From contig CANKZM010000007.1 in NCBI GenBank assembly GCA_947488305.1, forward strand, positions 134,860-198,859: a stretch of DNA of 64,000 nt, in the 5' to 3' direction. Within the stretch, counting starts at the first letter, position 1, and each line of letters begins with the position of its first letter. This document shows, piece by piece, positions 4,016-43,742 of this stretch. A program made the translations under genes and the position numbers. Source of the DNA: an uncultured Roseobacter sp. (GTDB taxonomy: Bacteria > Pseudomonadota > Alphaproteobacteria > Rhodobacterales > Rhodobacteraceae). The notes under the pieces are model-generated. The model was not told the origin of the DNA. It did no database searches and was given only the letters and a program-made list of their open reading frames with translations.

Positions 4016-4016
4016 G

Positions 4017-20454: not shown

Positions 20455-20547
20455 GTGTTGCAGAACAAAGCATCGTTAGCCTTTTGCGACCTTACTTGCA
20501 ATAATGCGCGAAACTCCAACTGCCGCCTCGATCGAAAGGATCCCTAA

Positions 20548-21963: not shown

Positions 21964-21981
21964 TTTGCACACGTGTGCAAA
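21964..21981. promoter_or_regulatory. perfect 18-bp palindrome TTTGCACACGTGTGCAAA, candidate LacI-family operator
   Basis: Self-complementary over all 18 positions with a central CG. An extra half-site TGTGCAAA lies at 21945-21952. It is 81 nt upstream of the ABC ATPase start (22062). The only LacI-family gene in the window is in the same operon. Confidence 0.55.
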
Positions 21982-22061: not shown

Positions 22062-23117
22062 ATGGCTGAGATACAACTGCGGAACGTGAACAAGCGTTGG
22101 GGCAGCTTTGTTGGCGTCGATAATTTTGACCTGACCATAGCGGATGAGGAGTTCCTTGTATTGCTCGGCCCATCCGGCTGCGGAAAGACCACCACAATGC
22201 GGATGATTGCCGGTCTGGAAGATGCGACAGAAGGTGAAATCATTATCGACGGTCGCGTCGTAAACGATCTTGATCCCAAAGACCGGGACGTGGCGATGGT
22301 TTTCCAGTCTTACGGTCTTTATCCGAACATGAATGTCTACGAGAACATTCGCTTCCCTCTAAAAGTTCGCAAAATCCCTGACAGTGAGCATGACGAACGG
22401 GTACGACGTGCGTCTGCGATGGTCGAGCTTGATGACTTCTTGCACCGCAAGCCGGCGGAGCTTTCGGGCGGTCAGCGCCAGCGTGTTGCTTTGGCCCGCG
22501 CAATCGTGCGCGAACCGAACGTCTTTTTGATGGATGAGCCGCTGTCGAACCTTGATGCCAAGTTGCGGGTGTCGACCCGCGCGCAGATCAAGAACCTCAG
22601 CCACGAGTTAAAAGTTACCACCGTCTATGTGACCCATGACCAGATCGAAGCCATGACGCTCGCGGACCGGGTTGTTGTCATGAAACAGGGTAAAGTGCAG
22701 CAAGTCGGCACACCTACTGAAATATACGACAATCCAGCCAATACATTTGTTGCCAGCTTTATCGGCAGCCCTGCCATGAATTTGATGGATGGCCAGATTG
22801 AAGGCGGCGTGTTCACGGGCACGAATGTACGCATCGAAGGCCTTTCCGGTCCGGACGGTGAGATCACGCTCGGATTCAGGGCAGAGGATGCCACCCTTGC
22901 GGCCGAAAACGCAGGGGAGATCAACGGGCCGATCTATACGATCGAGCTTCTTGGCGACGCAACGATGTTGACGGTGCGCGCCGGAGGTCAACTGGTTTCG
23001 GTGAAAGCGCACAAAGAGTACAGAGCCGAAATAGGAGATTTGGTGTCCTTCTCGGTGCCAACGGCGATCTGCCATTTGTTCGATAAGGACAGTGGAAGCA
23101 GGATAGCCACAACCTGA
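22062..23117 (+). CDS. sugar-type ABC transporter ATP-binding protein (UgpC/MalK-like)
   Basis: Walker A GPSGCGKTT, signature LSGGQRQRVA, Walker B FLMDEPLSNLD, and a C-terminal TOBE-like domain. ATG 22062 (MAEIQLRNV); the track start is GTG 21975. Confidence 0.92.
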   Translation: MAEIQLRNVNKRWGSFVGVDNFDLTIADEEFLVLLGPSGCGKTTTMRMIAGLEDATEGEIIIDGRVVNDLDPKDRDVAMVFQSYGLYPNMNVYENIRFPLKVRKIPDSEHDERVRRASAMVELDDFLHRKPAELSGGQRQRVALARAIVREPNVFLMDEPLSNLDAKLRVSTRAQIKNLSHELKVTTVYVTHDQIEAMTLADRVVVMKQGKVQQVGTPTEIYDNPANTFVASFIGSPAMNLMDGQIEGGVFTGTNVRIEGLSGPDGEITLGFRAEDATLAAENAGEINGPIYTIELLGDATMLTVRAGGQLVSVKAHKEYRAEIGDLVSFSVPTAICHLFDKDSGSRIATT

Positions 23118-23204
23118 AAAATAACGAGGCGCGGATCACCGGGCCAACCAAAAGGTGCAGCCTTGCAAGATGCACCCAACCTAACTGCAACAGGGAGTTT
23201 GCAT

Positions 23205-24425
23205 ATGTTTTTGAAAAGAATTGCTTTGGCGGGCGCGGTCTCGCTTATGGGAAGCGCGGCTTTTGCGGCTTGCTCCTATGAGAACGAAACCCCGATCAAG
23301 TCGCTGAGTGCCGGGTTTGAGGCGTGGAAAGCGGTCACGGACGCTATGGCGGAATGCGGCAACTTCCAAGCTGAATTGGACCAGGAATTCCGCACCAAAC
23401 AGCCTGCGGCCTTTGAGGCCAATCCGTCGCTATACCACATCGGCGGGGTGTCAAACGGCACGATCACACCGCTGCTCAACGCAGGTACAATTCGGCCTCT
23501 GGATGACTTGGTGGCAAAGTACGGCGAAAACCTCAGCCCGAACCAGTTGATCCGCATCAACGGTCAGATCATGGCCGTCGCGATGATGGTGAACACCCAA
23601 CACCTGATGTATCGGTCTGACATTCTGAGCGATCTGGGTATCGAGACGCCAACCTCGTGGGATGAGGTCTACGCTGCTGCGGACAAGATCAAGGAAGCGG
23701 GGGTCGTGGATTATCCGCTTGGCGCCACGATGAAGTCCGGTTGGAACCTCGCCCAGGAATTCGTGAACATGTACCCCGGCCACGGCGGTACTTTCTTCAA
23801 TGATGACAACACCACAGCCGTGAACTCGGAAGCTGGCCTGGCGGCGCTCGGAACAATGCAAAAGGCGCTGGCATACACTGACCCGGAGGTTCTGGTAAGC
23901 GACTCCACATACGTGCAACAGCAATTCCAGCAAGGCAAGATTGCGATGGCAAACCTCTGGGCGAGCCGGGCAGGGGCCATGAATGACGAGGCCGAAAGCC
24001 AGGTTGTTGGCAAGGTCGCCATGGCGTCAGCGCCGAAAGCGGTTGCTGATGGTGCTCCGGCCACAACGCTGTGGTGGGACGGTATCGTGATTGCGAAGAA
24101 CATCACGGATGAAGAGGCTGACGCGGCATTCCGTCTGGCCATGGAAGGTCTTGATGCAGAGATGGTGAAGGGCGCCAATGACGCTGCCATCTGGCTGGTA
24201 CAGGGCTACGAACCTACGGACATTGCTGCGGGCGCGATTGCTACGGCAACAGCAAACCCGGCACCACCTGCCTATCCATCGACCACACAGATGGGTCTGC
24301 TTCATACCGCGCTTGGCAATGAGCTTCCCGCCTTTCTGACCGGCGAAAGAGATGCCGCCGCGACTTTGGTGGCGATTGAGGAAGCCTACACAACATCGGC
24401 AAAAGAGGCCGGCGTTCTCGAATAG
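23205..24425 (+). CDS. ABC transporter substrate-binding protein (extracellular solute-binding family 1)
   Basis: Signal peptide MFLKRIALAGAVSLMGSAAFA, about 405 aa, with sequence character typical of CUT1 binding proteins. ATG 23205 is preceded by an AGGGAG Shine-Dalgarno sequence. Confidence 0.85.
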   Translation: MFLKRIALAGAVSLMGSAAFAACSYENETPIKSLSAGFEAWKAVTDAMAECGNFQAELDQEFRTKQPAAFEANPSLYHIGGVSNGTITPLLNAGTIRPLDDLVAKYGENLSPNQLIRINGQIMAVAMMVNTQHLMYRSDILSDLGIETPTSWDEVYAAADKIKEAGVVDYPLGATMKSGWNLAQEFVNMYPGHGGTFFNDDNTTAVNSEAGLAALGTMQKALAYTDPEVLVSDSTYVQQQFQQGKIAMANLWASRAGAMNDEAESQVVGKVAMASAPKAVADGAPATTLWWDGIVIAKNITDEEADAAFRLAMEGLDAEMVKGANDAAIWLVQGYEPTDIAAGAIATATANPAPPAYPSTTQMGLLHTALGNELPAFLTGERDAAATLVAIEEAYTTSAKEAGVLE

Positions 24426-24433
24426 TCAAACAT

Positions 24434-24463
24434 GCGTTGGCCCGGAGGAGACCGGGCCAACGC
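24434..24463 (+). other. intra-operon stem-loop after the binding-protein gene (no U-tract)
   Basis: GCGTTGGCCCGG-aggaga-CCGGGCCAACGC is a perfect 12-bp stem starting 9 nt after the stop at 24425. Confidence 0.55.
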
Positions 24464-24551
24464 ACTCCCTCGTCGGTTTCGCAAAAGGCGACAACACCGT
24501 GTTTTGCAAAGCTGACCCGATATCCACGCGGAATGCCGCAAGGAGAGCCCC

Positions 24552-25577
24552 ATGAAGTTCAAGACTTTTGCAGCCTTTGTTGGACCGTCGGTGTTCATGA
24601 TGTTGTTGTTCATCGCGGCACCACTTGTCAGCGTTTTTATTCAGAGCTTCCAAGTGACGCAGCCGATCCTTGAGCAGGTCGAAGTGGAAACCTGCACGCC
24701 GGGGTTTCTGACACAGACCTGTACGACGGAAACCAAAACGGTGCCTGTGCTGGATGAGAACGGCAAAACGATGACCGAGACCAGCTGGGTCGGGTTCCAA
24801 AGCTATCGGAATGTTCTGCAAATGGACAAATTCTGGGAAGCCGTGGGCAACGGCAGCTGGAATGACATCAACCAGATTGATTTCTGGCGCGCGCTGCGTT
24901 TCACGCTGATGTTCACGCTCCTGACTCTCCCGATGGTGTTGATCGTGGGGCTCGCCATCGCGCTTGCGGTCAATAACGCCGTCAGATCGATCCGAGGACC
25001 AGTGATCTTCATTTCACTCCTGCCCTTCATCATTACGCCCGTGATCGGATCGCTCTCGATCTACTGGCTTTTTGTGGGGGACGGCATCCTGACACGGCTG
25101 ATGGAGCAATGGTCTGGTCAGAATATCTCCATGTTCGCCCAGGCCTGGACGATCGAATTGCTGATGTACTTCTTCCGGGTCTGGAACAACGCGCCCTTTG
25201 CCTTCGTCATTTTCTACGCGGGGCTACAGACGGTCAACATGGACACGCTGGAGTCTGCCGTGATCGACGGCGCCAGCCGCTGGGAGCGGCTGCGCCACGT
25301 CATCATCCCACACCTGATGCCGCTGATCATCTTTATCGCGCTCATCCACCTGATGGACGTCTACCGCGTGTTCGAAGAGATCGTGGGCTTCCGAAGCCAG
25401 GCACATGTGATCTCACTGCAATGGCTCACCTATGACTTCATGACGCCGGACGATGCGGGCAACCGCGCCATGAGCCGTGCGTCGGCTTCTGCGATGCTGA
25501 CCATGATCGGGATTGTCTTTTTGTTGATCCTGCCGCTGCGCCGTACCTGGCGTGACCACAAAGGGAGCGCAAACTGA
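24552..25577 (+). CDS. ABC transporter permease (MalF/UgpA-like)
   Basis: Multiple TM helices and the EAA loop ESAVIDGASRWERLRHVIIPHLMP. Confidence 0.88.
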   Translation: MKFKTFAAFVGPSVFMMLLFIAAPLVSVFIQSFQVTQPILEQVEVETCTPGFLTQTCTTETKTVPVLDENGKTMTETSWVGFQSYRNVLQMDKFWEAVGNGSWNDINQIDFWRALRFTLMFTLLTLPMVLIVGLAIALAVNNAVRSIRGPVIFISLLPFIITPVIGSLSIYWLFVGDGILTRLMEQWSGQNISMFAQAWTIELLMYFFRVWNNAPFAFVIFYAGLQTVNMDTLESAVIDGASRWERLRHVIIPHLMPLIIFIALIHLMDVYRVFEEIVGFRSQAHVISLQWLTYDFMTPDDAGNRAMSRASASAMLTMIGIVFLLILPLRRTWRDHKGSAN

Positions 25578-26734
25578 TGTCTACGCCCAAAGCCATGCAG
25601 CAGTCTTTCGCGCTGCGCTTTTCCTCCGGTGCATTTCTCGCGTTCTGGTGCCTTATCGCGGCCTTCCCGATCTTCTGGATTGCAGTGATGAGCTTCAAGT
25701 CCCCAGTAGACGCATTCGCGGCGAGTCCATGGGACGTCATCACCGGCCCCGCAACCCGCGCGAATGGCGATGGGCTCTCCATCCTCGACATCGTTGTAGG
25801 GCTTGTTGTTCTCTACTTCGCCATCCGCTGGGCATTTACGCGTCTTCCGGGCCTCGTGCGTCAATACTGCCCGCCGGGCATGATCGTGTTGGGCTGGGTC
25901 ATCGGCGCAATCGCATATGGCATTCTGTTCGTGCTGGTGTTCTTCACTCTGATGCCGCTGATCCTGGGGCCAATCAACAGCCTCTTGGGTCCACTTGGAA
26001 GTCCAATCCTTGGCCTGACAACGGAACACTACGTTGCGGTCTGGGGGGAGAATGAATTCTACCGAAATTTCCTGAATTCGATGTTGGTAACCGCAGGCGT
26101 CGTGACCGTCTCCCTGACAGTCGGAACCCTGGCTGGATATGGGTTGGCGCGCTCAGGCTCGGATCTGGCCTTCTGGCTGCTTATTCTCGCTCTGATCTTC
26201 CGCGCCTTGCCGCATTCCGTGCTGGTTGCTGGTTACTTGCCGGTGTTTATCAATTCCTCGGAAATCCTCGCGCCGATATTCGGTGAAGGGGCCCCGACCC
26301 TCTATGGCCAACCCTGGGCCGTCATCGCGGTGCTGGTTGCGATCAACCAACCCTTTACCATCTGGATGCTGCGGTCCTTTTTCCAGAATATCCCGGCCGA
26401 GCTGGATGAGGCAGCCCGGGTTGACGGGTGCTCCCACTTTCAAGCCTTCCGGCGGGTGATCATGCCTGTGATGTGGCCCGGTGTCATCACCACGGGGCTG
26501 TTCAGCTTCTTGTTGGGCTACAACGACTTTCTCGTAACGTCCTTGTTGCTGGATGCGCAGAACCAGACGATGGTTCCCGCGATCGCGGGCTACTTCAACC
26601 GTGAAACCACCACGACAGATCAGGTTGAGGCGGTTGCGGCTGCGGTCTCTATCACGGCGCCGCTTTTCCTGCTGGTCATGATATTCCAGCGCCAAATCGT
26701 TAGCGGTCTGACAGCGGGGGCGGTGAAGGGCTGA
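25577..26734 (+). CDS. ABC transporter permease (MalG/UgpE-like) with extra hydrophobic insertion
   Basis: EAA loop EAARVDGCSHFQAFRRVIMPVMWP. TGATG overlap with the previous gene. About 100 additional residues follow TM1 compared with typical 280-aa family members. Confidence 0.88.
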   Translation: MSTPKAMQQSFALRFSSGAFLAFWCLIAAFPIFWIAVMSFKSPVDAFAASPWDVITGPATRANGDGLSILDIVVGLVVLYFAIRWAFTRLPGLVRQYCPPGMIVLGWVIGAIAYGILFVLVFFTLMPLILGPINSLLGPLGSPILGLTTEHYVAVWGENEFYRNFLNSMLVTAGVVTVSLTVGTLAGYGLARSGSDLAFWLLILALIFRALPHSVLVAGYLPVFINSSEILAPIFGEGAPTLYGQPWAVIAVLVAINQPFTIWMLRSFFQNIPAELDEAARVDGCSHFQAFRRVIMPVMWPGVITTGLFSFLLGYNDFLVTSLLLDAQNQTMVPAIAGYFNRETTTTDQVEAVAAAVSITAPLFLLVMIFQRQIVSGLTAGAVKG

Positions 26735-26908
26735 TGAGCAAAGCCGCGCGATCTGGCTGGGTGCAGCGCCATCCCGCGCTGAACCGAATGCCAAGGGACT
26801 TCATCTTGGGGCATGCGCGCCATTTCGCATGTTGCAGTTTCAAGATGAAAGGATGATCCGATGAAGGGATCGAGACCTGAACAGGCCGTATTGTCCAAAG
26901 ATACGGAT

Positions 26909-27400
26909 ATGTCAAAAACAGACGCTACCCGCGCTGTCATCGAGGGTATGATCGATGGGCTGAACGACCACCGTATTGACGACATTGGAACGTTCTTTGC
27001 GCAGAGTTTTCGGTGGATGGGCAATCAGGGATGCGGGACCAAGAACGGCCTGCGCGAGTTTCAGGACAACTGGCAGCGCCCGTTTCAGGCAGCGTTTTCC
27101 GATAAAGTCTGCGTGGATGAAGCGCGGCTTTACATGGGCGAGTGGGCTGCGGCTTTCGGTCGTCAGGAAGCGACCCATTCAGGGCAGTTCATGGGCTTGG
27201 CACCAACCGGCAAGCGCGTCGAAATCCGCTATATGGATTTTTGGAAAGTTGAGGACGGGAAGATCACTGATAATTGGGTGATGGTGGATTTCCCGCATGT
27301 GTTGGCCCAGTTGGGCGTTGATGTATTCGATGGGGAAGGCTGGGAGGCCTTTGACCGCGGTGAACGTATCCCACCGCGACCCGATCAGGGAGGAGAGTAA
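26909..27400 (+). CDS. SnoaL-like (NTF2-fold, 'ester cyclase') protein, single domain
   Basis: GKRVEIRYMDFWKVEDGKITDNWVMVDFPHVLAQLGVDVF matches the SnoaL-like polyketide cyclase family pattern. ATG 26909; ATG 26861 is an alternative start. Confidence 0.72.
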   Translation: MSKTDATRAVIEGMIDGLNDHRIDDIGTFFAQSFRWMGNQGCGTKNGLREFQDNWQRPFQAAFSDKVCVDEARLYMGEWAAAFGRQEATHSGQFMGLAPTGKRVEIRYMDFWKVEDGKITDNWVMVDFPHVLAQLGVDVFDGEGWEAFDRGERIPPRPDQGGE

Positions 27401-27403
27401 CCC

Positions 27404-28732
27404 ATGGCAATAGAATATCTCAAGTCAGGCAAGTCAGATGCCGAGCGTGCCGATGATGATGCCAAGACGCGGGCAGCTGTCGAAGCGACGCTTGCGGACA
27501 TCGAAAAGAATGGGGACGCGGCTGTACGAAAACTGTCGGAGAAATTCGACAACTACAGCCCGGAAAACTTCCGGTTGAGTCTTGAAGAGATCGAGGCGCT
27601 CATCGCGCAGCTGACACCGCGCGAACTTGAGGACATCAAATTCGCGCAGGAGCAGGTCCGCAATTTCGCTCAGGCGCAGCGCGACTCCATGCTCGACATC
27701 GAAGTGGAAACAATGCCGGGCGTCATTCTTGGTCACAAGAACATCCCGGTGCAGTCGGTGGGGTGTTATGTCCCGGGTGGCAAGTTCCCGATGGTGGCGT
27801 CTGCCCATATGTCTGTGGCAACCGCTTCTGTCGCCAAGGTGCCGCGCATCATCGCCTGCACGCCGCCGTTTCAGGGCAAGCCAAACCCGGCGGTCATTGC
27901 TGCAATGCACTTGGGAGGCGCGCATGAGATTTACGTCATGGGCGGCATACAGGCGATTGGCGCCATGGCGCTGGGAACTGAGACAATCGACCCGGTGCAT
28001 ATGCTGGTCGGCCCCGGTAATGCCTTTGTGGCTGAGGCCAAGCGGCAGCTCTTTGGTCGCGTCGGCATTGACCTTTTTGCAGGTCCGACCGAGACGATGG
28101 TCATCGCAGATGAAACGGTCGACGCTGAAATGTGTGCGACGGACCTACTGGGTCAGGCTGAGCATGGGTATAACTCGCCCGCCGTATTGCTCACCAACTC
28201 GCGTAAGCTGGCGGATGAAACGCTTGCTGAAATAGAGCGTATCCTAAAAATCCTGCCGACGGCAGAAACCGCGCGGACAAGCTGGGAAGACTACGGTGAG
28301 GTCATTTTGTGTGACACCTATAACGAGATGTTGGAAGTCGCGGATGATATTGCCTCCGAACATGTGCAGGTGATGACCGATCGTGATGACTGGTTCCTCG
28401 ACAAGATGACCTGCTATGGCGCGCTGTTTCTCGGGCCGCGTACCAATGTGGCTAATGGCGACAAAGTCATTGGCACCAATCACACGCTACCGACCAAGAA
28501 GGCCGGGCGCTATACGGGTGGGCTTTGGGTTGGAAAGTTCCTCAAGACGCACAGCTATCAGAAAGTCACCAGTGATGAAGCGGCTGCCGAAATCGGTGCT
28601 TACGGATCGCGGCTGTGTATTCTGGAGGGGTTCGTCGGGCATGCAGAGCAGTGCAATTTGCGCGTTCGCCGATATGGCGGCATCAATGTGCCATACGGCG
28701 AAGGTGCACCGGCCAAACAGGCAGCAGAATAA
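27404..28732 (+). CDS. histidinol dehydrogenase family protein (HisD paralog, non-histidine context)
   Basis: 442 aa with the family motifs [22 protein letters not shown] and [16 protein letters not shown] Shine-Dalgarno sequence lies upstream. Confidence 0.88.
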
Positions 28733-28738
28733 TCGGGC

Positions 28739-29743
28739 ATGAACCTCAATCAGGCCAACAAACGCAAGGCCCGCGCAGTTTGGGCAGCCTTGGACAACGA
28801 TCCGGCGGCTGCCGAAAACCTGTTGCCGAGGCTGTCACACTGGCAGGGCCCTGAACCAATTGGTCTGCAGACCAGCAGCAGTGCAATTATTGAGGCTATG
28901 TTCGCGCCATTGCGCGATGCCGTTCCGGACCTCGCGCGTCAAATCCATATCCTGATGGGCGGTCAGTCTTCCGCAAGCGAAGCGGGTGACGGCGATGGCG
29001 CATGGTGGGTTGCGGGGACTGGCTACTATACCGGTCGTGCTGCTTCGACGGTGTTCGGAATTCCGGCGACGGGTCGCGACTTGCGGATCCGTTGGGGAGA
29101 GTTCTTTCGCTTTGATGCCTCGGGCGAAATCACACACGCCCAGACCATTTGGGATTTCGTTGATTGGTTTGATCAGATTGATCTGCCTGTCTTGCCGCGT
29201 CCCAGAGGGGCTGCGCATGTCTATCCGGCTGCGACTGCCTATGATGCAGTTCTGTCGGATCCACAGACGCCTGCCGAAACGGACAAAACGCTTTCATTCG
29301 GGCGCGACTTTATCTTTGGTGGCTTGAACAGTTTCGATGAAAATGACCTGAGCAGCATGGGGATGGCGCGGTTCTTTCATCCGAATGTGAAGTGGTACGG
29401 GCCGGGCGGCATTGGCGCGTGCCTGTCATTGCAGGAATTCGAAACACTGCATCAACAGCCTTGGCTGATTGCCTTTCCAGACCGAAAAGTGATGCATCTT
29501 GAGAGCCTTTTTGCGGAAGACCGTATGCTGGCGGCGTCGGGTCCGAAAGGTGTCGTTGGAACCCACGGCGGTACCTATCTTGGACATGCCGCGACAGGAA
29601 ATCCCATCGAAGTTTCCGGATTGGATTTCTGGCTTCGCACCGGCGGCCAGTTCACCGAAAACTGGGTCTTTGTGGACATGGTGCATCTGTTTGCACAAAT
29701 GGATGTCGACCTTTTCGCACGAATGAAAGCACATGCCCGATGA
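28739..29743 (+). CDS. tandem SnoaL-like (NTF2-fold) domain protein
   Basis: Two repeats: IPATGRDLRIRWGEFFRFDASGEITHAQTIWDF and GNPIEVSGLDFWLRTGGQFTENWVFVDMVHLFAQMDVDLF. Confidence 0.65.
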   Translation: MNLNQANKRKARAVWAALDNDPAAAENLLPRLSHWQGPEPIGLQTSSSAIIEAMFAPLRDAVPDLARQIHILMGGQSSASEAGDGDGAWWVAGTGYYTGRAASTVFGIPATGRDLRIRWGEFFRFDASGEITHAQTIWDFVDWFDQIDLPVLPRPRGAAHVYPAATAYDAVLSDPQTPAETDKTLSFGRDFIFGGLNSFDENDLSSMGMARFFHPNVKWYGPGGIGACLSLQEFETLHQQPWLIAFPDRKVMHLESLFAEDRMLAASGPKGVVGTHGGTYLGHAATGNPIEVSGLDFWLRTGGQFTENWVFVDMVHLFAQMDVDLFARMKAHAR

Positions 29744-30789
29744 GCGACAGGCCCACCTCCCACAAAGAACTTATCGCGCCATTGCGGGCCGCACTCTACG
29801 ACTTTGATGAACAGAAAGTGCGTGCTGTTCTGCATGAAGTTTGTGCGGCAGATGTTGTCTTCAACCTCGCTTTTCCTTTTGAAACAACCGTTGGCGTTGA
29901 TGCCTATGTGGACAAGGTCTATGCCCCGCTGGCGAAGGCCATACCCGACCTGGAGTGCCGGGATTTCATCGTTATGGCGGGCCCGACACCCGACGGTGCC
30001 GACTGGGTAGGATGCGGTGGGTACTATACCGGTGCGTTTATGGCGCCTTGGTTGGACATTCCTGCAACCGGACACATGGCCCATCTGCGCTTTCATGAAT
30101 TCTACCGGATCGAAAATGGCAAGATCATTGAGATGCAGGCGCTTTGGGATCTGCCCGAATTGATGATGCAAGCCGGGGCATGGCCGATGGGTCCGTCGCT
30201 CGGCCGCGAGTGGCACATTCCGGGTCCTGCCACCTGCGACGGCATTGTCCCCAGCCCTTATGATGCCCGGTGGGGAGAGGAGACCTGTCAGCGCATTATC
30301 GACATGCTCGCCCATCTCAAGAAACACCCCGGCGAAGGTGGTCCGGAAGTGATGGAGATGGAGCGGTTCTGGCATCCCAGGATGTCATGGTACGGGCCCT
30401 CAGGCATCGGCACGGGCCGGGGCGTGCGAGGGTTCCGGCACTGGCACCAGATACCCTTCCTCAACGCCATGCCGGACAGGGGGCAGTATCTTGATGAAAT
30501 CGAGTATCACTTCTTTGGGGATCGCAACTACGCAGCGGTCACGGGTTGGCCGAACATGTACCAATCCATCACAGATGGTGGTTGGTTGGGGATCGCACCG
30601 ACGGGCAAGAAGATCGCGATGAGATCACTGGATTTCTGGCGTTTGGAAGGGGATCTGATCCGCGAGAACTGGGTCCTGGTAGATTTGTTGCATATGTATG
30701 ACCAGATCGGCGTAGACGTCCTCGCGCGGATGCGTGAATTCAATAAGGCCCGTGCCGGGTTCGACGCAGAAACGGGAGCAGCCCTTTGA
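29740..30789 (+). CDS. tandem SnoaL-like (NTF2-fold) domain protein, paralog of 28739..29743
   Basis: IPATGHMAHLRFHEFYRIENGKIIEMQALWDL and GKKIAMRSLDFWRLEGDLIRENWVLVDLLHMYDQIGVDVL. 4-nt overlap with the previous gene. Confidence 0.65.
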   Translation: MSDRPTSHKELIAPLRAALYDFDEQKVRAVLHEVCAADVVFNLAFPFETTVGVDAYVDKVYAPLAKAIPDLECRDFIVMAGPTPDGADWVGCGGYYTGAFMAPWLDIPATGHMAHLRFHEFYRIENGKIIEMQALWDLPELMMQAGAWPMGPSLGREWHIPGPATCDGIVPSPYDARWGEETCQRIIDMLAHLKKHPGEGGPEVMEMERFWHPRMSWYGPSGIGTGRGVRGFRHWHQIPFLNAMPDRGQYLDEIEYHFFGDRNYAAVTGWPNMYQSITDGGWLGIAPTGKKIAMRSLDFWRLEGDLIRENWVLVDLLHMYDQIGVDVLARMREFNKARAGFDAETGAAL

Positions 30790-31547
30790 CCAATTTGCCC
30801 AAATCCCCTGGTTTTGATCTGACAGGTAGATGCGCGTTGGTCACGGGCGCATCCTCCGGCATCGGCCTGGCCTGTGCCGCCGCGCTCGCAGAAGCAGGGG
30901 CTCACGTGGTCTGTGCCGCGCGTCGTATCGGCCCGCTGCAAGAGACCGTCGATGCTATGACGTCTGCTGGTTTTTCAGCTGAGGCTTTGGTGCTGGATCA
31001 AACCGATCTGAGGGCGCTGGAAGAAGCCTTATCGTCGCCTTTTGACATTGTTCTGAACTCAGCGGGATTGGCGCGCCACAGTGCCGCTGTCGAGACACGG
31101 CCAGAAGACTATGATGCCGTCATGGATATCAACCTGCGCAGCGCGTATTTCCTGTCTTCGTATTCGGCCAAAGCGATGATCAATGACGGGCGACGCGGAT
31201 CGATCATCCATATCAGCAGCCAGATGGGGCATGTTGGAGGCATTGATCGCGCGGTCTATTGCGCGTCAAAACATGCACTGGAGGGGATGGTCAAGTCGAT
31301 GGCCATTGAGTGGGGCAAGTCAGGAGTTCGGATCAACACGATCTGTCCGACCTTTATTCGAACGCCCCTGACGCAGGCCACTTTCGACAACCCGGACCGG
31401 TTGGCGTGGCTTATGGAAAAGATAAAATTGCCTCGCGCGGGCGAGGTAGAAGACATAATGGGGGCTGCCGTGTTTCTGGCCTCGGACGCGTCCGCGATGG
31501 TCACGGGGACGTCAATGCTGATCGATGGCGGGTGGACAGCAGGGTGA
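30786..31547 (+). CDS. SDR family oxidoreductase
   Basis: TGASSGIG cofactor motif, catalytic YCASKHAL (YxxxK), 253 aa. 4-nt overlap with the previous gene. Confidence 0.9.
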   Translation: MTNLPKSPGFDLTGRCALVTGASSGIGLACAAALAEAGAHVVCAARRIGPLQETVDAMTSAGFSAEALVLDQTDLRALEEALSSPFDIVLNSAGLARHSAAVETRPEDYDAVMDINLRSAYFLSSYSAKAMINDGRRGSIIHISSQMGHVGGIDRAVYCASKHALEGMVKSMAIEWGKSGVRINTICPTFIRTPLTQATFDNPDRLAWLMEKIKLPRAGEVEDIMGAAVFLASDASAMVTGTSMLIDGGWTAG

Positions 31548-31565
31548 CGGGAGGGTGCCGATCCA

Positions 31566-32582
31566 ATGGGTAAAGTGACATCACTCGATGTCGCCGAGAA
31601 GGCCGGGGTCAGTCGCTCCGCGGTCAGTCGTGTGTTTACGCCCGGCGCGTCAGTCAGCGCGACGACGCGGGATAAGGTTCGCAAAGCCGCCGCCGCCTTG
31701 GGATACCGCCCGAATGTCATCGCGCGGTCGCTGAATACGGGCCGCAGCAGGATCGTCGGACTCGTCGTTGCCTATCTTGAAAACCAGTTCTACCCGGAAG
31801 CAATTGAGAGGCTATCCAAAACCTTGCAGGCGCAGGGATATCACGTTCTGGTATTTATGGCCTCGAACGACAACAAGGCCACGCAAGGTGTTATTGATGA
31901 GCTGCTGGATTACCAGGTGGATGCAATCATTGCCGCCTCGGTGGGGCTGTCGAATGACCTGACGAAACGGTGCGAGGATCTTGGCATTCCAATCGTGCTG
32001 TTCAACCGCCACCAATATGACGCGCAGCTGACGTCAGTTACGTCTGACAACATAGCGGGTGGGCGCAAACTGGCCGAGTTTCTGGTCGCAGGCGGCCATG
32101 AGCGGATTGCGCATATCGCCGGATGGGAAGGCGCCTCGACACAGATTGATCGCGAGGCCGGTTTTCTGGAGGGGCTGCGCGACGCGAACGTGCCTCTTTT
32201 TGCCCGCAACATCGGAAATTTCAATTTCGAGACGGCAAAGCAGGCCGCACGTACGATGTTCAGTGCGGTTGAGAAGCCCGATGCCGTCTTTGTAGCCAAC
32301 GATCATATGGCATTTGCAGTGATGGACGTTCTGAGGTTTGAGCTTGGGTTGAGCGTTCCGGACGACGTCTCAGTCGTCGGGTATGATGACGTGGCACTTG
32401 CACAATGGCCAAGCTACGACCTGACAACCATCCGCCAACCTGCAAACAGAATGGTGTCAGAAACAACAAACGCTCTTTTGGCCCGATTGAATGATCCGAC
32501 CGTTCCAGCGCGCCAGATCGTTCTTGAAGGGCCATTGATGATCCGCGGTTCGGCCCGCAAACCCAAGGAAGGCAAGACATGA
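31566..32582 (+). CDS. LacI family transcriptional regulator
   Basis: N-terminal HTH VTSLDVAEKAGVSRSAVSRVF followed by a periplasmic-binding-protein-like sugar-binding fold (about 338 aa). Confidence 0.9.
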   Translation: MGKVTSLDVAEKAGVSRSAVSRVFTPGASVSATTRDKVRKAAAALGYRPNVIARSLNTGRSRIVGLVVAYLENQFYPEAIERLSKTLQAQGYHVLVFMASNDNKATQGVIDELLDYQVDAIIAASVGLSNDLTKRCEDLGIPIVLFNRHQYDAQLTSVTSDNIAGGRKLAEFLVAGGHERIAHIAGWEGASTQIDREAGFLEGLRDANVPLFARNIGNFNFETAKQAARTMFSAVEKPDAVFVANDHMAFAVMDVLRFELGLSVPDDVSVVGYDDVALAQWPSYDLTTIRQPANRMVSETTNALLARLNDPTVPARQIVLEGPLMIRGSARKPKEGKT

Positions 32583-33547
32583 AAGGCTTCGACAAGAAGT
32601 TTAAGGATTTCCCCGACTATATCATCGGGATCACCAAGGAAATCTGGGAAGACCGGGGCATTGCAACCCTTCACAACTACTACTCTGATGACATCGTTGT
32701 CCGCTCACCGGCTTCGGTAGTGATCGGCAATCAGAACGTTATCGGTGCAACCATGGCCACCCTGGCGGAGTTTCCGGATCGTACGCTTCTGGGCGAGGAT
32801 GTCATCTGGTCGGGAACACCCGAAGAGGGCATGCTGTCGTCACACCGTTTGTTGAGCACCGCGACACATATGCACGATGGTGTTTATGGCAAAGCGACCG
32901 GCAAAAAACTCACCTACCGAATTCTGGCCGACTGCCATGCCATCAACAATCAAATCAACGATGAATGGCTGATCCGCGATCAGGGGGCCATCGTGCGCCA
33001 ACTTGGGTGGGACCCGAAGACTTATGCGGCAGACCTCATTGAGAATGAAGGGGGTCCGGAAACCTGCGTAAAGCCTCTGTCACCGGTGACCGACAAACCG
33101 GGCCCCTATAAGGGTCGGGGGAATGAAAATGAATGGGGTGCCAAATACGCGGACTTGCTTTCTCGTATCATGGGCGCCGATATGGCAGCCGTCTCATCCG
33201 AATATGACCGGGCAGTACAGGTGGAGTATCCCGGCGGGAAGACAGGGCACAGCCATTCAGATGTGGATCAGTTCTGGATGGGTCTTCGTGCGTCTTTCCC
33301 GGATGCTCAGTTCCAGATTGATCACCAGATCGGGCGAGAAGACCCGATGATGCCACCCCGTGCGGCTTTGCGCTGGTCGTTGACCGGCAAGCACTCTGGC
33401 TGGGGCATATTCGGCCCGCCCACCGGTGCCGACATCTATGTGCTGGGTATCTGCCATGCAGAGTTTGGCCCATGGGGGCTGCGCCGCGAATGTGTCATCT
33501 ACGATGAGACCACGATCTGGAAGCAGATCCTGTTACACACTGGCTGA
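32579..33547 (+). CDS. tandem SnoaL-like (NTF2-fold) domain protein
   Basis: ATGKKLTYRILADCHAINNQINDEWLIRDQGAIVRQLG and PTGADIYVLGICHAEFGPWGLRRECVIYDETTIWKQI. 4-nt overlap with the LacI gene. Confidence 0.62.
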   Translation: MKGFDKKFKDFPDYIIGITKEIWEDRGIATLHNYYSDDIVVRSPASVVIGNQNVIGATMATLAEFPDRTLLGEDVIWSGTPEEGMLSSHRLLSTATHMHDGVYGKATGKKLTYRILADCHAINNQINDEWLIRDQGAIVRQLGWDPKTYAADLIENEGGPETCVKPLSPVTDKPGPYKGRGNENEWGAKYADLLSRIMGADMAAVSSEYDRAVQVEYPGGKTGHSHSDVDQFWMGLRASFPDAQFQIDHQIGREDPMMPPRAALRWSLTGKHSGWGIFGPPTGADIYVLGICHAEFGPWGLRRECVIYDETTIWKQILLHTG

Positions 33548-33595
33548 TCCTTTCAGTTTTACAAAAAAAACAAGCCGACGAAAGAAAGAGAAATC

Positions 33596-34561
33596 ATGAC
33601 ACCCGCCGAGATGGAAGGCCGCATTGTTCGATATGGCGATCTGAAACCATGCAAAACCGCGTTCATTGATGCGCACACTCCAGGCTCCGATCAAAAGGAG
33701 AACTTTACCATCATCGGAGGAGGTGTTTCCGAGAGCCCGGATCAACATGTCCATATTTCGATCCCGCACGGCTTTAATATCGGGGCAGCGGGCCAACCGC
33801 CAAAATGCCGGAATTCGCTGCATAGCCACCGCACGGCGGAGGTCTTCTTTGTCTTGTCCGGGCGCTGGCGGTTTTTCTGGGGCCGATGGGGAAATGCCGG
33901 AGAGGTCACATTGGAGCCGGGAGATATCTTCAATATCCCGACCGGTATCTTTCGGGGGTTTGAAAACATCGGAAATGACTATGGAATGATCATGGCCATT
34001 CTCGGCGGCGATGATGCGGGGGGCGGGGTCATCTGGGCGCCTCAGGTGATTGAGGATGCCGCGCACCACGGGCTGGTTTTGTCGGAAGAAGGCAAGCTCT
34101 ATGACAGCAAGAAGGGTCAGTCATTGCCGGAGGGCGTCGCGCCGATGCCGCTGCTTACCGATGAGGAACTCAAGGCGTATCCGGAACCTACGACGGCAGA
34201 TGTTATCCCCAACTACGTCGCGCGCTACTGGGATATGGTGGCGCTCGCGGATCGCAAACCAGCCAAGGTGATTGGTGAAAACGGCATGTTGCGTGACAAG
34301 CCGGGGTTCGAAGTCGATCTGGTGACGCGCGCCTCGGCATCTGAAGAGATGCACCAACATGATCGACCGTCTGTCCTTATGCCGGTCAAGGGACATTGGC
34401 ATGTCAACTGGGAAGGTGGCAGTGCCACATTGGCGCCGGGCGACACGATGTCCGTTCCGGAGAACCTGATGCACAATGCCGTGCCTTCGATGACGGGCGA
34501 CGCCAGCCTCTACCACATCGTGGCGACGGGGGATCCGGCCGGAGCAACTTGGCAGCAATAA
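33596..34561 (+). CDS. bicupin (two cupin-fold domains)
   Basis: NSLHSHRTAEVFFVLSGRWRF...EPGDIFNIPTGIFRGFEN, and a second module VLMPVKGHWHVNWEGGSATLAPGDTMSVPENLMHNA. Confidence 0.68.
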   Translation: MTPAEMEGRIVRYGDLKPCKTAFIDAHTPGSDQKENFTIIGGGVSESPDQHVHISIPHGFNIGAAGQPPKCRNSLHSHRTAEVFFVLSGRWRFFWGRWGNAGEVTLEPGDIFNIPTGIFRGFENIGNDYGMIMAILGGDDAGGGVIWAPQVIEDAAHHGLVLSEEGKLYDSKKGQSLPEGVAPMPLLTDEELKAYPEPTTADVIPNYVARYWDMVALADRKPAKVIGENGMLRDKPGFEVDLVTRASASEEMHQHDRPSVLMPVKGHWHVNWEGGSATLAPGDTMSVPENLMHNAVPSMTGDASLYHIVATGDPAGATWQQ

Positions 34562-34563: not shown

Positions 34564-34632
34564 TGAACAATGTTCACAAAATTCTTGAACGGTACGCTAC
34601 GATACGTTATCGAATTCATGAACATAGTTCAT
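34564..34632. promoter_or_regulatory. cluster of TGAAC-type palindromes in an AT-rich spacer
   Basis: TGAACAATGTTCA (34564-34576), half-site TGAAC (34586-34590), CGATAcgtTATCG (34600-34612) and ATGAACATAGTTCAT (34618-34632). All lie directly upstream of GGAG (34633-34636) and ATG 34643. Confidence 0.4.
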
Positions 34633-34642
34633 GGAGATAAGA

Positions 34643-35848
34643 ATGCATACGATAGCTGATACAAAAATGCTGGTAGAAGAGGGTGTTATCTCTCAAACAG
34701 CGGCCAGAATCATCGAGGCGCGCGCACGCAGCACAATGGTCGCATTAGCCATCAACGCGGTGCTTTGCGCAGGAATTCTCTTTGCCACCTTTGGCTTGAT
34801 CTTCTGGTTGGCAGACGCGTTTGCTGTCGCGGTTTGCGGTGGTGTCTTCCTTCTCGCGGGCGTGCTGACCCTGAACAAGGGCAACGCGCTTTACAGCATG
34901 TTCGGCAATGCGGCGGCGCTGATCGGCGCGGGTATGCTGATTGGGGGTGCTGGCATCGAATTGGCTGACAAATACCACGATGTCGCGGGTGGGATCATGT
35001 CCTTGGTCGGCGCGGGCATTGCCTTGAGCATGATCGTGGCACGGCGATCGACCGGCTTTGCCACGCCGTTCGTGACTGGGGCCATTCTCTTGATGGCTGT
35101 TGCCTTGCATCTTTGCGGCTTGGGCTTTTTGGCAGACCAATTTAGCCTTTTCGGCCTTCCGATGGTCGCGTTCTGGCTCTACGCCTCTGCAGCGATTGCC
35201 GCGGCCGGTTGGTTCATCGACGTGCGTCTCGTTTCTGCACTTGCTATCGTCCCCTTTGCGCAGGCGCTCGACACTGGCACTTTTTACTTTCACGCAGCCT
35301 ACGTCTTGTATTCACCGGAACCCACTCTCTCGATCCTGCAGATGATCGGGTTGATCGCGGCCATGTTTTGGGTCGCTCATCGGGTTGATGAGCGGTCTGC
35401 GCGCCATGCACGTATCCACGTCATGATGGCTTTCATTGTCGCCAACCTTTGCGCGCTTATGGGCAGCCTGTGGGGCGACGTCGTGGGCGAGACGGTCTTT
35501 GGGCCAAACCGCGACTTTCTGCGCAAAGGTGGGGATTACACCGAATGGCGCGAAGCCGTCGATGCCTTCAGGGCCAACGCTCTGGTGATCCACGAACATG
35601 TCTTTACGGTCGTCTGGGCCCTGGCGCTGATCGGTGTCACGGTAATTGCAGCCCATAAGAATGCGCGGGCGCTCTTCAATGCAGCCGTGACTTTTGGAGG
35701 CATCCACGCCTATACACAAGCTATCGAGACCTTCTACGATGAACCACTTGCCTATGTGGTCGGTGGCTTTATTGCAATTCCGCTGGCTTGGGGAATGTGG
35801 CGGCTCAACACCTGGTTTTTGGGTCGTGCCGTCCCGGGAAACGAATAA
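34643..35848 (+). CDS. polytopic integral membrane protein of unknown function
   Basis: About 401 aa with about 10 hydrophobic helices. ATG 34643 has GGAG 6 nt upstream. I could not assign a family confidently; the N-terminus LVEEGVISQTAARII is reminiscent of DUF2157-type proteins. Confidence 0.7.
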   Translation: MHTIADTKMLVEEGVISQTAARIIEARARSTMVALAINAVLCAGILFATFGLIFWLADAFAVAVCGGVFLLAGVLTLNKGNALYSMFGNAAALIGAGMLIGGAGIELADKYHDVAGGIMSLVGAGIALSMIVARRSTGFATPFVTGAILLMAVALHLCGLGFLADQFSLFGLPMVAFWLYASAAIAAAGWFIDVRLVSALAIVPFAQALDTGTFYFHAAYVLYSPEPTLSILQMIGLIAAMFWVAHRVDERSARHARIHVMMAFIVANLCALMGSLWGDVVGETVFGPNRDFLRKGGDYTEWREAVDAFRANALVIHEHVFTVVWALALIGVTVIAAHKNARALFNAAVTFGGIHAYTQAIETFYDEPLAYVVGGFIAIPLAWGMWRLNTWFLGRAVPGNE

Positions 35849-37025: not shown

Positions 37026-37720
37026 TGGACGCGGCATTGCACAAACTGCTGACCGAGGTCGACACGCCGACGGTTTGCAACGCGATTGAAGTGGCTCAGG
37101 GCAAACGGGGTTTCAACGCGTTCACACGAGGCACGATGTTGGCATCTCACCCGGAAGCGCCAGCCATGGTAGGCTACGCTCGCACCGCCCGTATCCGAGC
37201 GGTTGAGCCGCCCTCTGAGCCGCCGGAGGTCATCAAAAAGCGACGAATGGGCTACTACAAACATATGGCGGAAGGCCCACGCCCCTCGGTTTGTGTGGTT
37301 CAGGATCTCGACGTGCCTAATGCCATTGGCGCTTTCTGGGGGGAAGTCAATACGAACATCCACAAATCCTTCGGGCTTGCGGGAACCTTGACCAATGGTG
37401 TCATGCGGGATCTGGGCGATGTGCCGGATGGGTATCCGGTGGTGGCCGGGTCCGTCGGGCCCAGCCACGGGTTCGTGCATGTCGTCGATTTTGGACAACC
37501 GGTCGAGATTTTTGGCATGGCAGTGGCGGATGGCGATCTCGTGCACGTGGATCGTCATGGTGCAGTTGCTGTGCCACCGGAGGTTGTCCCAAAGCTTGCG
37601 CAGGCGATCCAGACCTTGATGAATTCCGAGCGTATCATTTTTGACGCCGTCAAAGGCAAATCCCTGACGTTTGAAGAATTCGAAAGTGTCTGGGCGGCTT
37701 TCGAGGCTGCGCGGACCTGA
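37025..37720 (+). CDS. RraA family protein (RraA / HMG-CHA aldolase / oxaloacetate decarboxylase-like fold)
   Basis: VDTPTVCNAIEV...AFWGEVNTNIHKSFGLAGTLTNGVMRD...GDLVHVDRHGAV. TGATG overlap with the preceding gene. Confidence 0.78.
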   Translation: MDAALHKLLTEVDTPTVCNAIEVAQGKRGFNAFTRGTMLASHPEAPAMVGYARTARIRAVEPPSEPPEVIKKRRMGYYKHMAEGPRPSVCVVQDLDVPNAIGAFWGEVNTNIHKSFGLAGTLTNGVMRDLGDVPDGYPVVAGSVGPSHGFVHVVDFGQPVEIFGMAVADGDLVHVDRHGAVAVPPEVVPKLAQAIQTLMNSERIIFDAVKGKSLTFEEFESVWAAFEAART

Positions 37721-40004: not shown

Positions 40005-40007
40005 ATC

Positions 40008-41105: not shown

Positions 41106-41202
41106 GGGGTGATTGTTTCCCTGAGGCCGTTTTTCGTTCTCGCCCAGCGTTACGCCTCGCCCGGTTCTGTGCAAGTCCCAACGCGACGAAATGATCGCAT
41201 TC

Positions 41203-43739: not shown

Positions 43740-43742
43740 GAG

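Follow-up and report, generated by a model that had tools for sequence, protein, structure and literature searches.

A LacI-linked operon of fifteen genes

In a 64,000-nucleotide stretch of contig CANKZM010000007.1 from an uncultured Roseobacter sp. (the whole stretch is called the window here, and coordinates refer to it), 15 genes on the plus strand form a real, LacI-controlled operon that imports and degrades a small polar compound by an undescribed route. The operon joins a sugar-type ATP-binding cassette (ABC) importer to four proteins of the SnoaL/NTF2 fold, a dehydrogenase of the histidinol dehydrogenase (HisD) family, a bicupin, a MetE-like protein, and an RraA-family protein. That it is catabolic, with its modules in the order given below, we hold with high confidence; as to the compound consumed, we tentatively propose MAAs (mycosporine-like amino acids), which we weigh against other candidates.

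The first-pass annotation had described 12 tightly chained genes at 22062-34561. All 12 open reading frames (ORFs) lie on the plus strand at exactly those positions, but the chain does not stop at 34561: three further genes follow on the same strand, to 37720, and the unit ends there because the next gene converges on it from the minus strand. The junctions read from the sequence are those originally reported: a 1-nt overlap at 25577 (TGATG), gaps of 3 nt at 27400/27404 and 6 nt at 28732/28739, and 4-nt overlaps at 29740 (ATGA), 30786 (TTGA, with a TTG start), and 32579 (ATGA). At the distal end, the MetE-like ORF starts with the ATG at 35901, preceded by a GAGGGAG ribosome-binding site, and the RraA-family gene overlaps it via TGATG at 37025. 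Every Pfam assignment in the 12 proteins lies above its gathering cut-off. The features are, in order:

21965..21980, no strand: candidate LacI-family operator, perfect palindrome TTGCACACGTGTGCAA, about 80 bp upstream of the first gene
22062..23117, plus: ABC transporter ATPase, MalK/UgpC type (ABC_tran 121 bits, OB_MalK, TOBE_2)
23205..24425, plus: periplasmic solute-binding protein, CUT1-like (SBP_bac_1 85 bits)
24433..24464, plus: perfect 13-nt inverted repeat, TGCGTTGGCCCGG / CCGGGCCAACGCA, directly after the stop codon of the binding-protein gene
24552..25577, plus: ABC permease 1 (BPD_transp_1)
25577..26734, plus: ABC permease 2 (BPD_transp_1 75 bits)
26861..27400, plus: Sno1, single-domain SnoaL/NTF2 protein, 179 aa (SnoaL 74 bits)
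27404..28732, plus: predicted HpsN-like four-electron alcohol dehydrogenase of the HisD family, 442 aa (Histidinol_dh PF00815 451 bits)
28739..29743, plus: Sno2, tandem SnoaL/NTF2 protein, 334 aa (two SnoaL stretches)
29740..30789, plus: Sno3, tandem SnoaL/NTF2 protein, 349 aa, core gene (two SnoaL stretches, 82 bits)
30786..31547, plus: short-chain dehydrogenase/reductase (SDR), 253 aa (adh_short_C2 187 bits)
31566..32582, plus: LacI-family regulator (LacI helix-turn-helix 49 bits, Peripla_BP_3 113 bits)
32579..33547, plus: Sno4, tandem SnoaL/NTF2 protein, 322 aa, core gene (SnoaL 57 bits, two stretches)
33596..34561, plus: predicted bicupin metalloprotein, 321 aa (Cupin_2 50 bits; the second barrel matches weakly)
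34631..35848, plus: multi-pass membrane protein, 405 aa, accessory (about ten hydrophobic segments)
35901..37025, plus: predicted single-domain MetE-like zinc alkyltransferase, 374 aa (Meth_synt_2 PF01717 55 bits)
37025..37720, plus: RraA-family protein, putative 4-hydroxy-2-oxoacid (pyruvate) aldolase, 231 aa, last gene (PF03737 55 bits)

Conservation and modular variants

How widespread is this arrangement? A scan of species representatives (one genome per species) gave at least 599 pattern matches, at least 524 of them encoding a relative of Sno3, and metagenomes hold thousands of homologs; hundreds of bacterial species, from the sea and from soil, share the operon. Synteny was compared in the 80 best loci among the matches listed, which come from Roseobacter, Tateyamaria, Sulfitobacter, Roseibium, Hoeflea, and Defluviimonas. 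Gene order and orientation are the same in 76 of them, an arrangement far beyond chance; the remaining four loci lie on short contigs or match in part only. The shared order is ABC genes, Sno1, HisD-like gene, (Sno2), Sno3, SDR, LacI, Sno4, bicupin, (variable slot), MetE-like gene, RraA, with brackets around the parts that vary.

The variable slot between the bicupin and MetE-like genes is where the 405-aa membrane protein (34631-35848) lies; it matches no Pfam family and is found in about 7 of 88 related loci. Elsewhere the slot holds a 306-aa hypothetical protein, or RidA together with an M19 dipeptidase. Related loci also carry genes that have no counterpart in the window: a PNPOx-like flavoprotein (37 loci), DUF6653 (25), a GMC oxidoreductase (18), and, between the bicupin or MetE-like gene and RraA, an alpha/beta hydrolase (18). 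Further accessory genes are a GST (8 loci), the M19 dipeptidase (4), and RidA (1), and the Sinorhizobium medicae locus has an extra amidase. Given the amidase, carbon-nitrogen hydrolase, RidA, and dipeptidase genes of these other genomes, the polyol or amino-alcohol substrate originally suggested is too narrow.

More distant loci keep only some of the modules. Vibrio pelagius has an orthologous transporter (55-64% identity), orthologs of Sno3 and Sno4, and two more tandem NTF2 genes; its locus has no dehydrogenase, cupin, MetE-like, or RraA genes. Since this bacterium keeps only the transporter and the NTF2 genes, the NTF2 enzymes would act first and yield something usable on its own, and the central place that the first-pass annotation gave to the NTF2 fold is borne out by such distant genomes. 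Paracoccus alcaliphilus, Ensifer adhaerens, and Mesorhizobium have the cupin, alpha/beta hydrolase, and RraA and lack the MetE-like gene; Octadecabacter and Roseibium have all four. In the solar saltern archaeon Halobellus limi, four tandem and one single NTF2 genes lie beside a MetE-like gene, with genes for a GcvT-like protein, an aldehyde dehydrogenase, a beta-hydroxyacid dehydrogenase, an MBL hydrolase, and a VOC protein.

A further variant is that of Deinococcus sp. QL22. It encodes a monocupin 37% identical to the N-terminal barrel of the bicupin and to that barrel only, a homologous alpha/beta hydrolase (32%), and, in the position of RraA, an HpcH/HpaI aldolase; it also has two HisD-like genes (with the motifs G-R-Y-P-M and G-R-Y-P-I), four NTF2 genes, a sugar-type ABC system, a LacI regulator, an SDR, and a carbon-nitrogen hydrolase. 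This variant supports the view that the cupin, hydrolase, and aldolase form one predicted cleavage module. Taken jointly, the variants point to a substrate with hydrolysable C-N-linked groups, a removable methyl group, and a hydroxymethyl group, whose skeleton, once cleaved oxidatively or hydrolytically, finishes as pyruvate.

The pairing of tandem NTF2 genes with a sugar-type importer recurs beyond these loci. A plasmid of Phaeobacter piscinae (L085, 3184-13186) carries a smaller LacI, CUT1, and NTF2 locus at 26-32% identity, adjoining an SBP56/methanethiol-oxidase-like gene, and in Vibrio europaeus the pairing occurs with an MFS transporter and a porin. These pairings would have other specificities.

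Regulation and transport

The palindrome TTGCACACGTGTGCAA occurs once in the 64-kb window. In 74 related loci this palindrome recurs (TTGCAnnCGnnTGCAA) ahead of the ATPase start, mostly by 70-130 bp (28-129 bp overall), and is identical in 47 of the 74; Roseibium- and Hoeflea-type loci carry the variant TTGCATTCGTATGCAA. The regulator has the helix-turn-helix and the periplasmic-binding effector domain of the LacI family, the palindrome in the promoter region has a central CG, and the LacI gene is embedded in the operon in all loci compared. Given the overlapping or closely abutting genes, the operator footprint in 74 loci, and the embedded LacI gene, the simplest reading is one repressor-controlled transcription unit, with the regulator presumed to bind the palindrome, and the earlier description of a single LacI-linked locus for uptake and conversion of a small polar compound is supported. 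A scan for consensus promoters and terminators gave nothing better than shuffled sequence. The inverted repeat at 24433-24464, in the 126-nt gap ahead of the permease gene, is probably an intercistronic hairpin.

The importer has the full CUT1 complement: SBP_bac_1, two BPD_transp_1 permeases, and a MalK-type ATPase with C-terminal OB/TOBE domains, the ATPase being 78-96% identical among syntenic loci. The binding protein matches solved sugar-binding proteins weakly (5iai, 56 bits; MalE3; SmoF, a sulfoquinovosyl-glycerol binder, 41 bits). In transporter architecture, embedded LacI gene, and central-CG palindrome, the locus resembles the LacI-regulated CUT1 operons of alphaproteobacteria (thu, agl, smo). 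However, it has no glycoside hydrolase, kinase, or isomerase of a sugar pathway, and its enzyme set is unlike that of any sugar route so far described.

Could the substrate nevertheless be a sugar derivative? In a sugar-acid or polyol route, the HisD-like enzyme would turn a sugar alcohol into an aldonic or uronic acid, with the bicupin as a KduI-like isomerase, the SDR as a KduD-like reductase, the NTF2 proteins as dehydratases, isomerases, or mutarotases, and the RraA-like protein as a non-phosphorylative 2-keto-3-deoxy-acid aldolase. The transporter type and its regulator suit such a route, as do the best NCBIfam model of the SDR, which is KduD, the label "mannose-6-phosphate isomerase-like" that one source gives to bicupin orthologs, and the ability of RraA and HpcH aldolases to cleave 4-hydroxy-2-oxo acids. 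But the SDR reaches 208 bits against a KduD cut-off of 339, the bicupin has no KduI Pfam match, and the KduI/KduD uronate module is not found here. A sugar-acid route would also leave unexplained the MetE-like and GcvT-like genes, the alpha/beta hydrolase gene that stands between those for cupin and aldolase, the genes for amidase, C-N hydrolase, RidA, and dipeptidase, and the Vibrio locus with NTF2 enzymes only, and no version examined has a kinase, a dehydratase of the enolase or IlvD families, or a glycoside hydrolase. We regard this route as unlikely. Among other known systems considered, the homarine operon (homABCDER) was excluded, having no families in common with the locus, and the routes for vitamin B6, rhizopine, validamycin, apiose, sulfoquinovose, and pectin (KduID) were set aside because they use other enzyme families.

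An HpsN-like branch of HisD-family dehydrogenases

The dehydrogenase was at first called a HisD paralog. It does belong to the Histidinol_dh family, but to an HpsN-like branch rather than to plain HisD: it scores 387 bits against HpsN, the (R)-2,3-dihydroxypropanesulfonate 3-dehydrogenase or sulfopropanediol dehydrogenase (8v35), 375 against the roseobacter dehydrogenase 8wwe for 2,3-dihydroxypropane-1-sulfonate (DHPS), and 252 against HisD (4g07). HpsN is its best match among solved structures (47% identity to CpHpsN), with the same length, identical zinc ligands, and the same catalytic Glu, His, Asp, and Lys. Across 80 orthologs, the zinc ligands (Gln, His, Asp, and a His of the partner chain) and the catalytic Glu-His, Asp-Lys, and His are invariant. 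Since these residues never vary, the four-electron oxidation of CH2OH to COOH, beside a carbinol or amino carbon that chelates the zinc, is very likely kept.

What the enzyme does not share with HpsN is the means of holding a sulfonate. The HpsN signature is G-R-Y-A/S-H, in which His126 binds the sulfonate (PMC11382572). The window enzyme has G-K-F-P-M instead, as do 79 of the 80 orthologs, and the Deinococcus enzymes have G-R-Y-P-M/I. The surroundings differ as well: neither hpsO/hpsP nor a sulfolyase gene (suyAB, xsc, cuyA) is present in the operon or the scanned flanking ORFs of the window, and import is by an ABC transporter, in contrast to the TRAP transporter of the HpsN system. The replaced motif and the missing sulfolyase rule out the DHPS/HpsN pathway. 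An authentic HisD is excluded by motif (G-S-A-P-L is not present), by relative scores, and by context, which is not that of a his operon. By these motifs, the predicted substrate is neither DHPS nor histidinol.

Might it still be a DHPS-like 2,3-dihydroxypropyl compound with another head group, such as a deacylated betaine-lipid head group or a quaternary-ammonium diol? The HpsN-like enzyme would then oxidize the glyceryl end and the MetE-like protein remove N-methyl groups. HpsN is indeed the closest match of the dehydrogenase, the binding protein is distantly related to SmoF, and genes of C1 metabolism lie near NTF2 clusters (soxBDAG-purU in Vibrio, the GcvT-like gene in Halobellus). Yet the sulfonate motif is invariantly replaced, neither a sulfolyase nor a sulfite exporter is encoded in the cluster, no obvious role would be left for the cupin, hydrolase, and aldolase, and betaines are normally taken up by BCCT or ProU-type transporters; a substrate of this kind is very improbable.

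Whatever its substrate, the dehydrogenase is prone to be misnamed. The Prokaryotic Genome Annotation Pipeline (PGAP) calls it hisD because it passes TIGR00069 with 434 bits against a cut-off of 243.8. In Tara Oceans data, hpsN has been counted with a threshold of 167 bits (PMC11131964), which the dehydrogenase, at 375 bits against the roseobacter enzyme, would pass. Transcript surveys of hpsN at this threshold would count it and so inflate estimates of DHPS cycling; for 27404-28732 and its orthologs, both the hisD label and the hpsN count carry a risk of systematic mis-annotation.

Tandem NTF2 proteins

All four Sno proteins pass the gathering score of SnoaL (PF07366), and the seven domains originally counted are confirmed by Pfam: one in the 179-aa protein and two each in the 334-, 349-, and 322-aa proteins. 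Their kinship is less uniform than was first described. The repeated C-terminal blocks quoted as visible paralogy are real in the 179-, 334-, and 349-aa proteins, but none comes from the 322-aa protein, and the motif IPATG..EF(F/Y)R is common to two N-domains only, not to all. Sno1 is 34-37% identical to the C-domains of Sno2 and Sno3 and is kept in all full-length loci compared. Sno2, at 34% identity to Sno3 over the full length and present in about 32 of the best 80 loci, mainly in Tateyamaria and close relatives of the window, is a lineage-specific paralog of Sno3. Sno4 aligns with Sno1-3 at 19% identity (BLAST E > 0.05) and is recognized as kin by hidden Markov models only; it is a separate lineage. 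Orthologs of Sno4 are 63% identical in Vibrio pelagius and 74-78% in Ruegeria, Paracoccus, Octadecabacter, and Ensifer; the Vibrio pelagius ortholog of Sno3, a protein with 5443 homologs, is 54% identical. In some homologs four NTF2 domains are fused in one chain (P0135, 692 aa; P0137, 711 aa).

The AlphaFold model of Sno3 (pLDDT 93.4) has two NTF2 cones, and the alignment reveals a conserved Arg, Asp, His, and Glu in each NTF2 domain. The best Foldseek matches, with E values of about 1e-10 to 1e-11, are Lsd19, MonBI-MonBII, SnoaL and SnoaL-like proteins, IdmH, and limonene epoxide hydrolase. Lsd19 and MonBI-MonBII, the polyether epoxide hydrolases/cyclases, likewise have two cones per chain. 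But sequence identity between Sno3 and these matches, tandem and single-domain, is 11-23%, the domains are oriented differently relative to each other (whole-chain TM-score 0.3), and the context of Sno3 is catabolic, with an importer, rather than polyketide biosynthesis.

The automatic label of these proteins, "ester cyclase / polyketide metabolic process", would make the locus a biosynthetic, polyketide-type cluster. All that speaks for this are the Pfam and Gene Ontology labels of the SnoaL family. The cluster has no genes for polyketide synthase (PKS), nonribosomal peptide synthetase, acyl carrier protein, or tailoring enzymes, PKS genes are found in none of the related loci compared, the importer and LacI repressor are embedded in the cluster, and the SnoaL/DnrD methyl ester cyclase subfamily model NF033407 gives 39.6 bits against a cut-off of 200. 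Gene content effectively refutes biosynthesis, to which we assign next to no probability.

A predicted cleavage module: bicupin, MetE-like, and RraA-family proteins

Sequence searches of the PDB with the NTF2, bicupin, MetE-like, and RraA-like proteins gave weak or uncharacterized matches only. In the bicupin, whose 120 closest homologs are 83-92% identical and come from several genera, the N-terminal barrel has H76-x-H78-x3-E82 and R120, invariant in 76 orthologs, and the histidines of the C-terminal barrel are degenerate; the N-terminal barrel is thus predicted to be the conserved catalytic unit, as its monocupin relative in Deinococcus would suggest. An AF2 model built from close homologs resembles quercetin 2,3-dioxygenase most in Foldseek, with oxalate decarboxylase, 3-hydroxyanthranilate dioxygenase, and salicylate dioxygenase also at the top, so that its nearest folds are mostly those of dioxygenases that cleave rings or enols; the ranking holds at fold level only because the model's pLDDT is 69. 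The HxHxxxE metal motif and a weak sequence match to acireductone dioxygenase may also recall the cupin dioxygenases that act on enols or diketones. Identity to quercetinase, acireductone dioxygenase, and Dke1 is, however, 12-15%, and the His of the second motif is Arg here.

The MetE-like protein shares with MetE the Meth_synt_2 barrel and the His-Cys-Glu-Cys zinc site; its H-x-C, E, C motif (RIHIC, FETSN, SDCGFG) is invariant in 64 orthologs. Unlike MetE (about 750 aa, two barrels, with an N-terminal folate-binding domain), it has one barrel in 374 aa. Single-domain ("core") MetE-like methionine synthases have the same single barrel and zinc site, and the methionine-synthase equivalog models all score far below cut-off for this protein (best, 89 against 406). 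The gene is syntenic in the marine loci and lies beside NTF2 genes in Halobellus limi. Because it sits in a catabolic operon, its methyl donor is probably a pathway intermediate.

The last protein refutes, at the level of the operon, the original statement that no aldolase gene is present: an RraA-family gene (PF03737, "Aldolase/RraA", 55 bits against a cut-off of 24.5) belongs to the unit, and an HpcH/HpaI aldolase takes its position in Deinococcus. Its R-D motif (G-V-M-R-D) is invariant in 54 orthologs; we take this to be the catalytic/metal motif of the aldolases for 4-hydroxy-4-methyl-2-oxoglutarate and 4-carboxy-4-hydroxy-2-oxoadipate (HMG/CHA aldolases: LigK, GalC, ProA). The best evidence that the RraA-like protein is a putative aldolase is that in Deinococcus another pyruvate-aldolase family, HpcH/HpaI, performing the same chemistry as the RraA-fold HMG/CHA aldolase LigK/GalC, occupies the same position.

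The order cupin, (alpha/beta hydrolase), RraA-family protein is that of the protocatechuate 4,5-cleavage/gallate and meta-cleavage lower pathways. Is the substrate then a methoxylated aromatic or a lignin-derived compound of the arylglycerol type? The SDR and GST would take the parts they have in beta-aryl-ether cleavage, the NTF2 proteins would act like the lyase LdpA, the HisD-like enzyme on the side-chain CH2OH, the MetE-like protein as an O-demethylase, the bicupin as a ring-cleavage dioxygenase, and the hydrolase and RraA as a meta-cleavage lower pathway; the parallels would presumably be LigD, LigE/F, LdpA, and LigM. Dioxygenase, hydrolase, and aldolase typically follow one another in aromatic meta-cleavage, the final step of the protocatechuate 4,5-cleavage and gallate pathways belongs to RraA-fold aldolases, and GST and GMC oxidoreductase genes accompany 8 and 18 loci. 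By contrast, the cupin lies outside the known ring-cleavage families, and to our knowledge no bicupin ring cleavage yields a substrate of the RraA type; the RraA-like protein is not a LigK equivalog; hydratase and tautomerase are missing here; and the upstream steps are left to NTF2 and HisD-family proteins. LigAB, LigI, LigJ, and LigM homologs are not present in the locus, its transporter and regulator are of the sugar type, the C-N-hydrolysing accessory genes stay unexplained, and processing such a compound with NTF2 enzymes only would gain Vibrio nothing. An aromatic substrate is decidedly unlikely.

Mycosporine-like amino acids as a possible substrate

Gene content and order, the operator, the metal and catalytic motifs, and the modular variants are matters of observation; from them we infer the substrate, each reaction, and the order of the steps. 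The accessory C-N genes and the cupin-hydrolase-aldolase module suggest an N-substituted, probably cyclic, methylated compound. MAAs are cyclohexenimines or cyclohexenones whose C1 and C3 bear amino acids or amino alcohols; they also have a 2-methoxy group and, at C5, both OH and CH2OH. Removal of their nitrogen substituents gives 4-deoxygadusol, 3,5-dihydroxy-5-(hydroxymethyl)-2-methoxycyclohex-2-enone. MAAs would fit all the features deduced for the substrate, and we tentatively propose that the operon serves their catabolism, via 4-deoxygadusol, to pyruvate and oxaloacetate. The carriers live in habitats rich in MAAs or mycosporines: algal-associated roseobacters and Roseibium, Vibrio, a saltern archaeon, and Deinococcus from high altitudes and dunes. 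According to a review that names no enzymes for the activity (PMC3083659), hydrolysis by Vibrio harveyi turns shinorine and porphyra-334 into mycosporine-glycine and 4-deoxygadusol.

The proposed route would run in six steps. (i) The CUT1-type ABC system would import the MAA. (ii) NTF2 enzymes would hydrolyse the imine and enaminone C-N bonds, releasing glycine, serine, or threonine and 4-deoxygadusol; Sno3 and Sno4 would be the core enzymes, and Sno1 and Sno2 would add specificities or act as tautomerases. (iii) The HpsN-like enzyme would oxidize the hydroxymethyl group (C7) to a carboxylate with two NAD+, the alpha-hydroxyl and the ring carbonyl chelating the zinc. (iv) The MetE-like zinc enzyme would take off the O-methyl group, probably onto homocysteine; alternatively or in addition, in genomes that carry the alpha/beta hydrolase, cleavage of a 2-methoxy-1,3-dione ring would give a methyl ester for that hydrolase. 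(v) The N-terminal cupin of the bicupin would cleave the enediol-one (aci-reductone) ring with O2, and the product, on paper, would be exactly 4-carboxy-4-hydroxy-2-oxoadipate. (vi) The RraA-fold (or HpcH) aldolase would split this into pyruvate and oxaloacetate. The second HisD-like gene of Deinococcus and the amidases of the Deinococcus and Sinorhizobium loci would suit fungal mycosporines (serinol, glutaminol).

The protein families have suitable precedents. Ketosteroid isomerase, scytalone dehydratase, and PhzA/B are NTF2 enzymes that act on cyclic enones, PhzA/B catalysing a condensation, the reverse type of C-N hydrolysis; among cupins, acireductone dioxygenase, quercetinase, and Dke1 cleave enol-ketones; and the cleavage of 4-carboxy-4-hydroxy-2-oxoadipate is catalysed by HMG/CHA aldolases, which have the RraA fold.

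Several points weigh against MAAs. Every reaction is deduced from family membership, and CUT1 transporters with LacI regulators usually serve sugars. The MetE-like gene is absent in Paracoccus, Ensifer, and Mesorhizobium although all mycosporines are O-methylated, and the esterase invoked to explain this is ad hoc. Seven NTF2 domains exceed the need of two hydrolytic steps, and the SDR has no assigned role in the route. In the bicupin, the Arg of the second motif means that the usual fourth metal ligand is missing, and the dioxygenase resemblance is one of fold. In the PDB the RraA-like protein finds no characterized aldolase at E <= 10 (top match, the uncharacterized 3k4i), and its best NCBIfam model, PRK08245, gives 55 against a cut-off of 208. 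Chance may account for two neighbourhoods: the sarcosine-oxidase genes adjoining the Vibrio pelagius NTF2 locus and, in Vibrio europaeus, a serine dehydratase gene next to a distant NTF2 paralog (about 30%). The MAA hydrolysis by Vibrio harveyi is second-hand information, and on another species of Vibrio.

With the same architecture and logic, the operon could also serve another N-substituted polar metabolite: a C7N aminocyclitol, an Amadori- or opine-like conjugate of a sugar and an amino acid, or some algal or fungal compound. Operator, synteny, cleavage module, C-N accessory genes, and NTF2-only variants all fit any such conjugate, and sugar-amino-acid conjugates are taken up by sugar-type ABC systems. 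We found no other class, marine and terrestrial, that combines a hydroxymethyl carbinol, a removable methyl group, amino-acid substituents, and a cleavable enol-one ring, but that objection argues from a lack of alternatives. A different conjugate is possible, if on the whole somewhat unlikely.

Full-text literature searches found no paper that combines these families and no gene cluster for MAA catabolism, in keeping with the earlier failure to recognize a characterized pathway. Single parts resemble HpsN chemistry, dioxygenase-hydrolase-aldolase pathways, LacI-CUT1 operons, or polyether tandem NTF2 proteins; the combination is undescribed in the literature searched. Should MAAs be the substrate, this may, though we say so even more guardedly, be the first genetic system for bacterial catabolism of MAAs and gadusols, with tandem NTF2 hydrolases that form a new class acting on the C-N bonds of imines and enaminones, a third HisD/HpsN branch by specificity, a MetE-like O-demethylase, and cleavage of an enediol-one ring that leads into the known aldolase step for 4-carboxy-4-hydroxy-2-oxoadipate.

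What would follow? Algae, corals, cyanobacteria, and fungi have MAAs and gadusols as their main natural UV sunscreens. If they are the substrate, the operon would supply genes for the bacterial MAA-hydrolysing activity, for which we found no named genes, a means of tracking sunscreen turnover in blooms, corals, and biological soil crusts, and enzymes with which MAAs and gadusol could be made or modified. Whatever the substrate, tandem NTF2 proteins and a branch of HisD/HpsN enzymes gain new functions, and, since the locus is abundant and has no assigned substrate, a considerable flux of dissolved organic matter that passes through roseobacters in the sea would be going unannotated.

The surrounding window

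Directly upstream of the operon, at 19552-21771, lie a divergent LysR regulator and an acyl-CoA dehydrogenase. The dehydrogenase is conserved in the Roseobacteraceae loci (84-94% identity) and not in Roseibium or Hoeflea; the pair is therefore probably a matter of lineage synteny rather than part of the pathway. At the other end, a small SRPBCC/Polyketide_cyc2 protein with an N-terminal hydrophobic leader (37727-38200, minus strand) converges on the operon; it has no match in any related locus checked. Beyond it, a second tight cluster on the minus strand (38772-47788) encodes an enolase-superfamily (MR/MLE) protein, a Zn-dependent alcohol dehydrogenase, an MFS transporter, a Lyase_1 protein (fumarase/CMLE-type), three alpha/beta hydrolases, a PLP (PALP) enzyme, and a HAD hydrolase. 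At 730-11442, also on the minus strand, the window holds a block for fatty-acid beta-oxidation with an acyl-CoA synthetase, a FadB-like multifunctional enzyme, a thiolase, and two acyl-CoA dehydrogenases.

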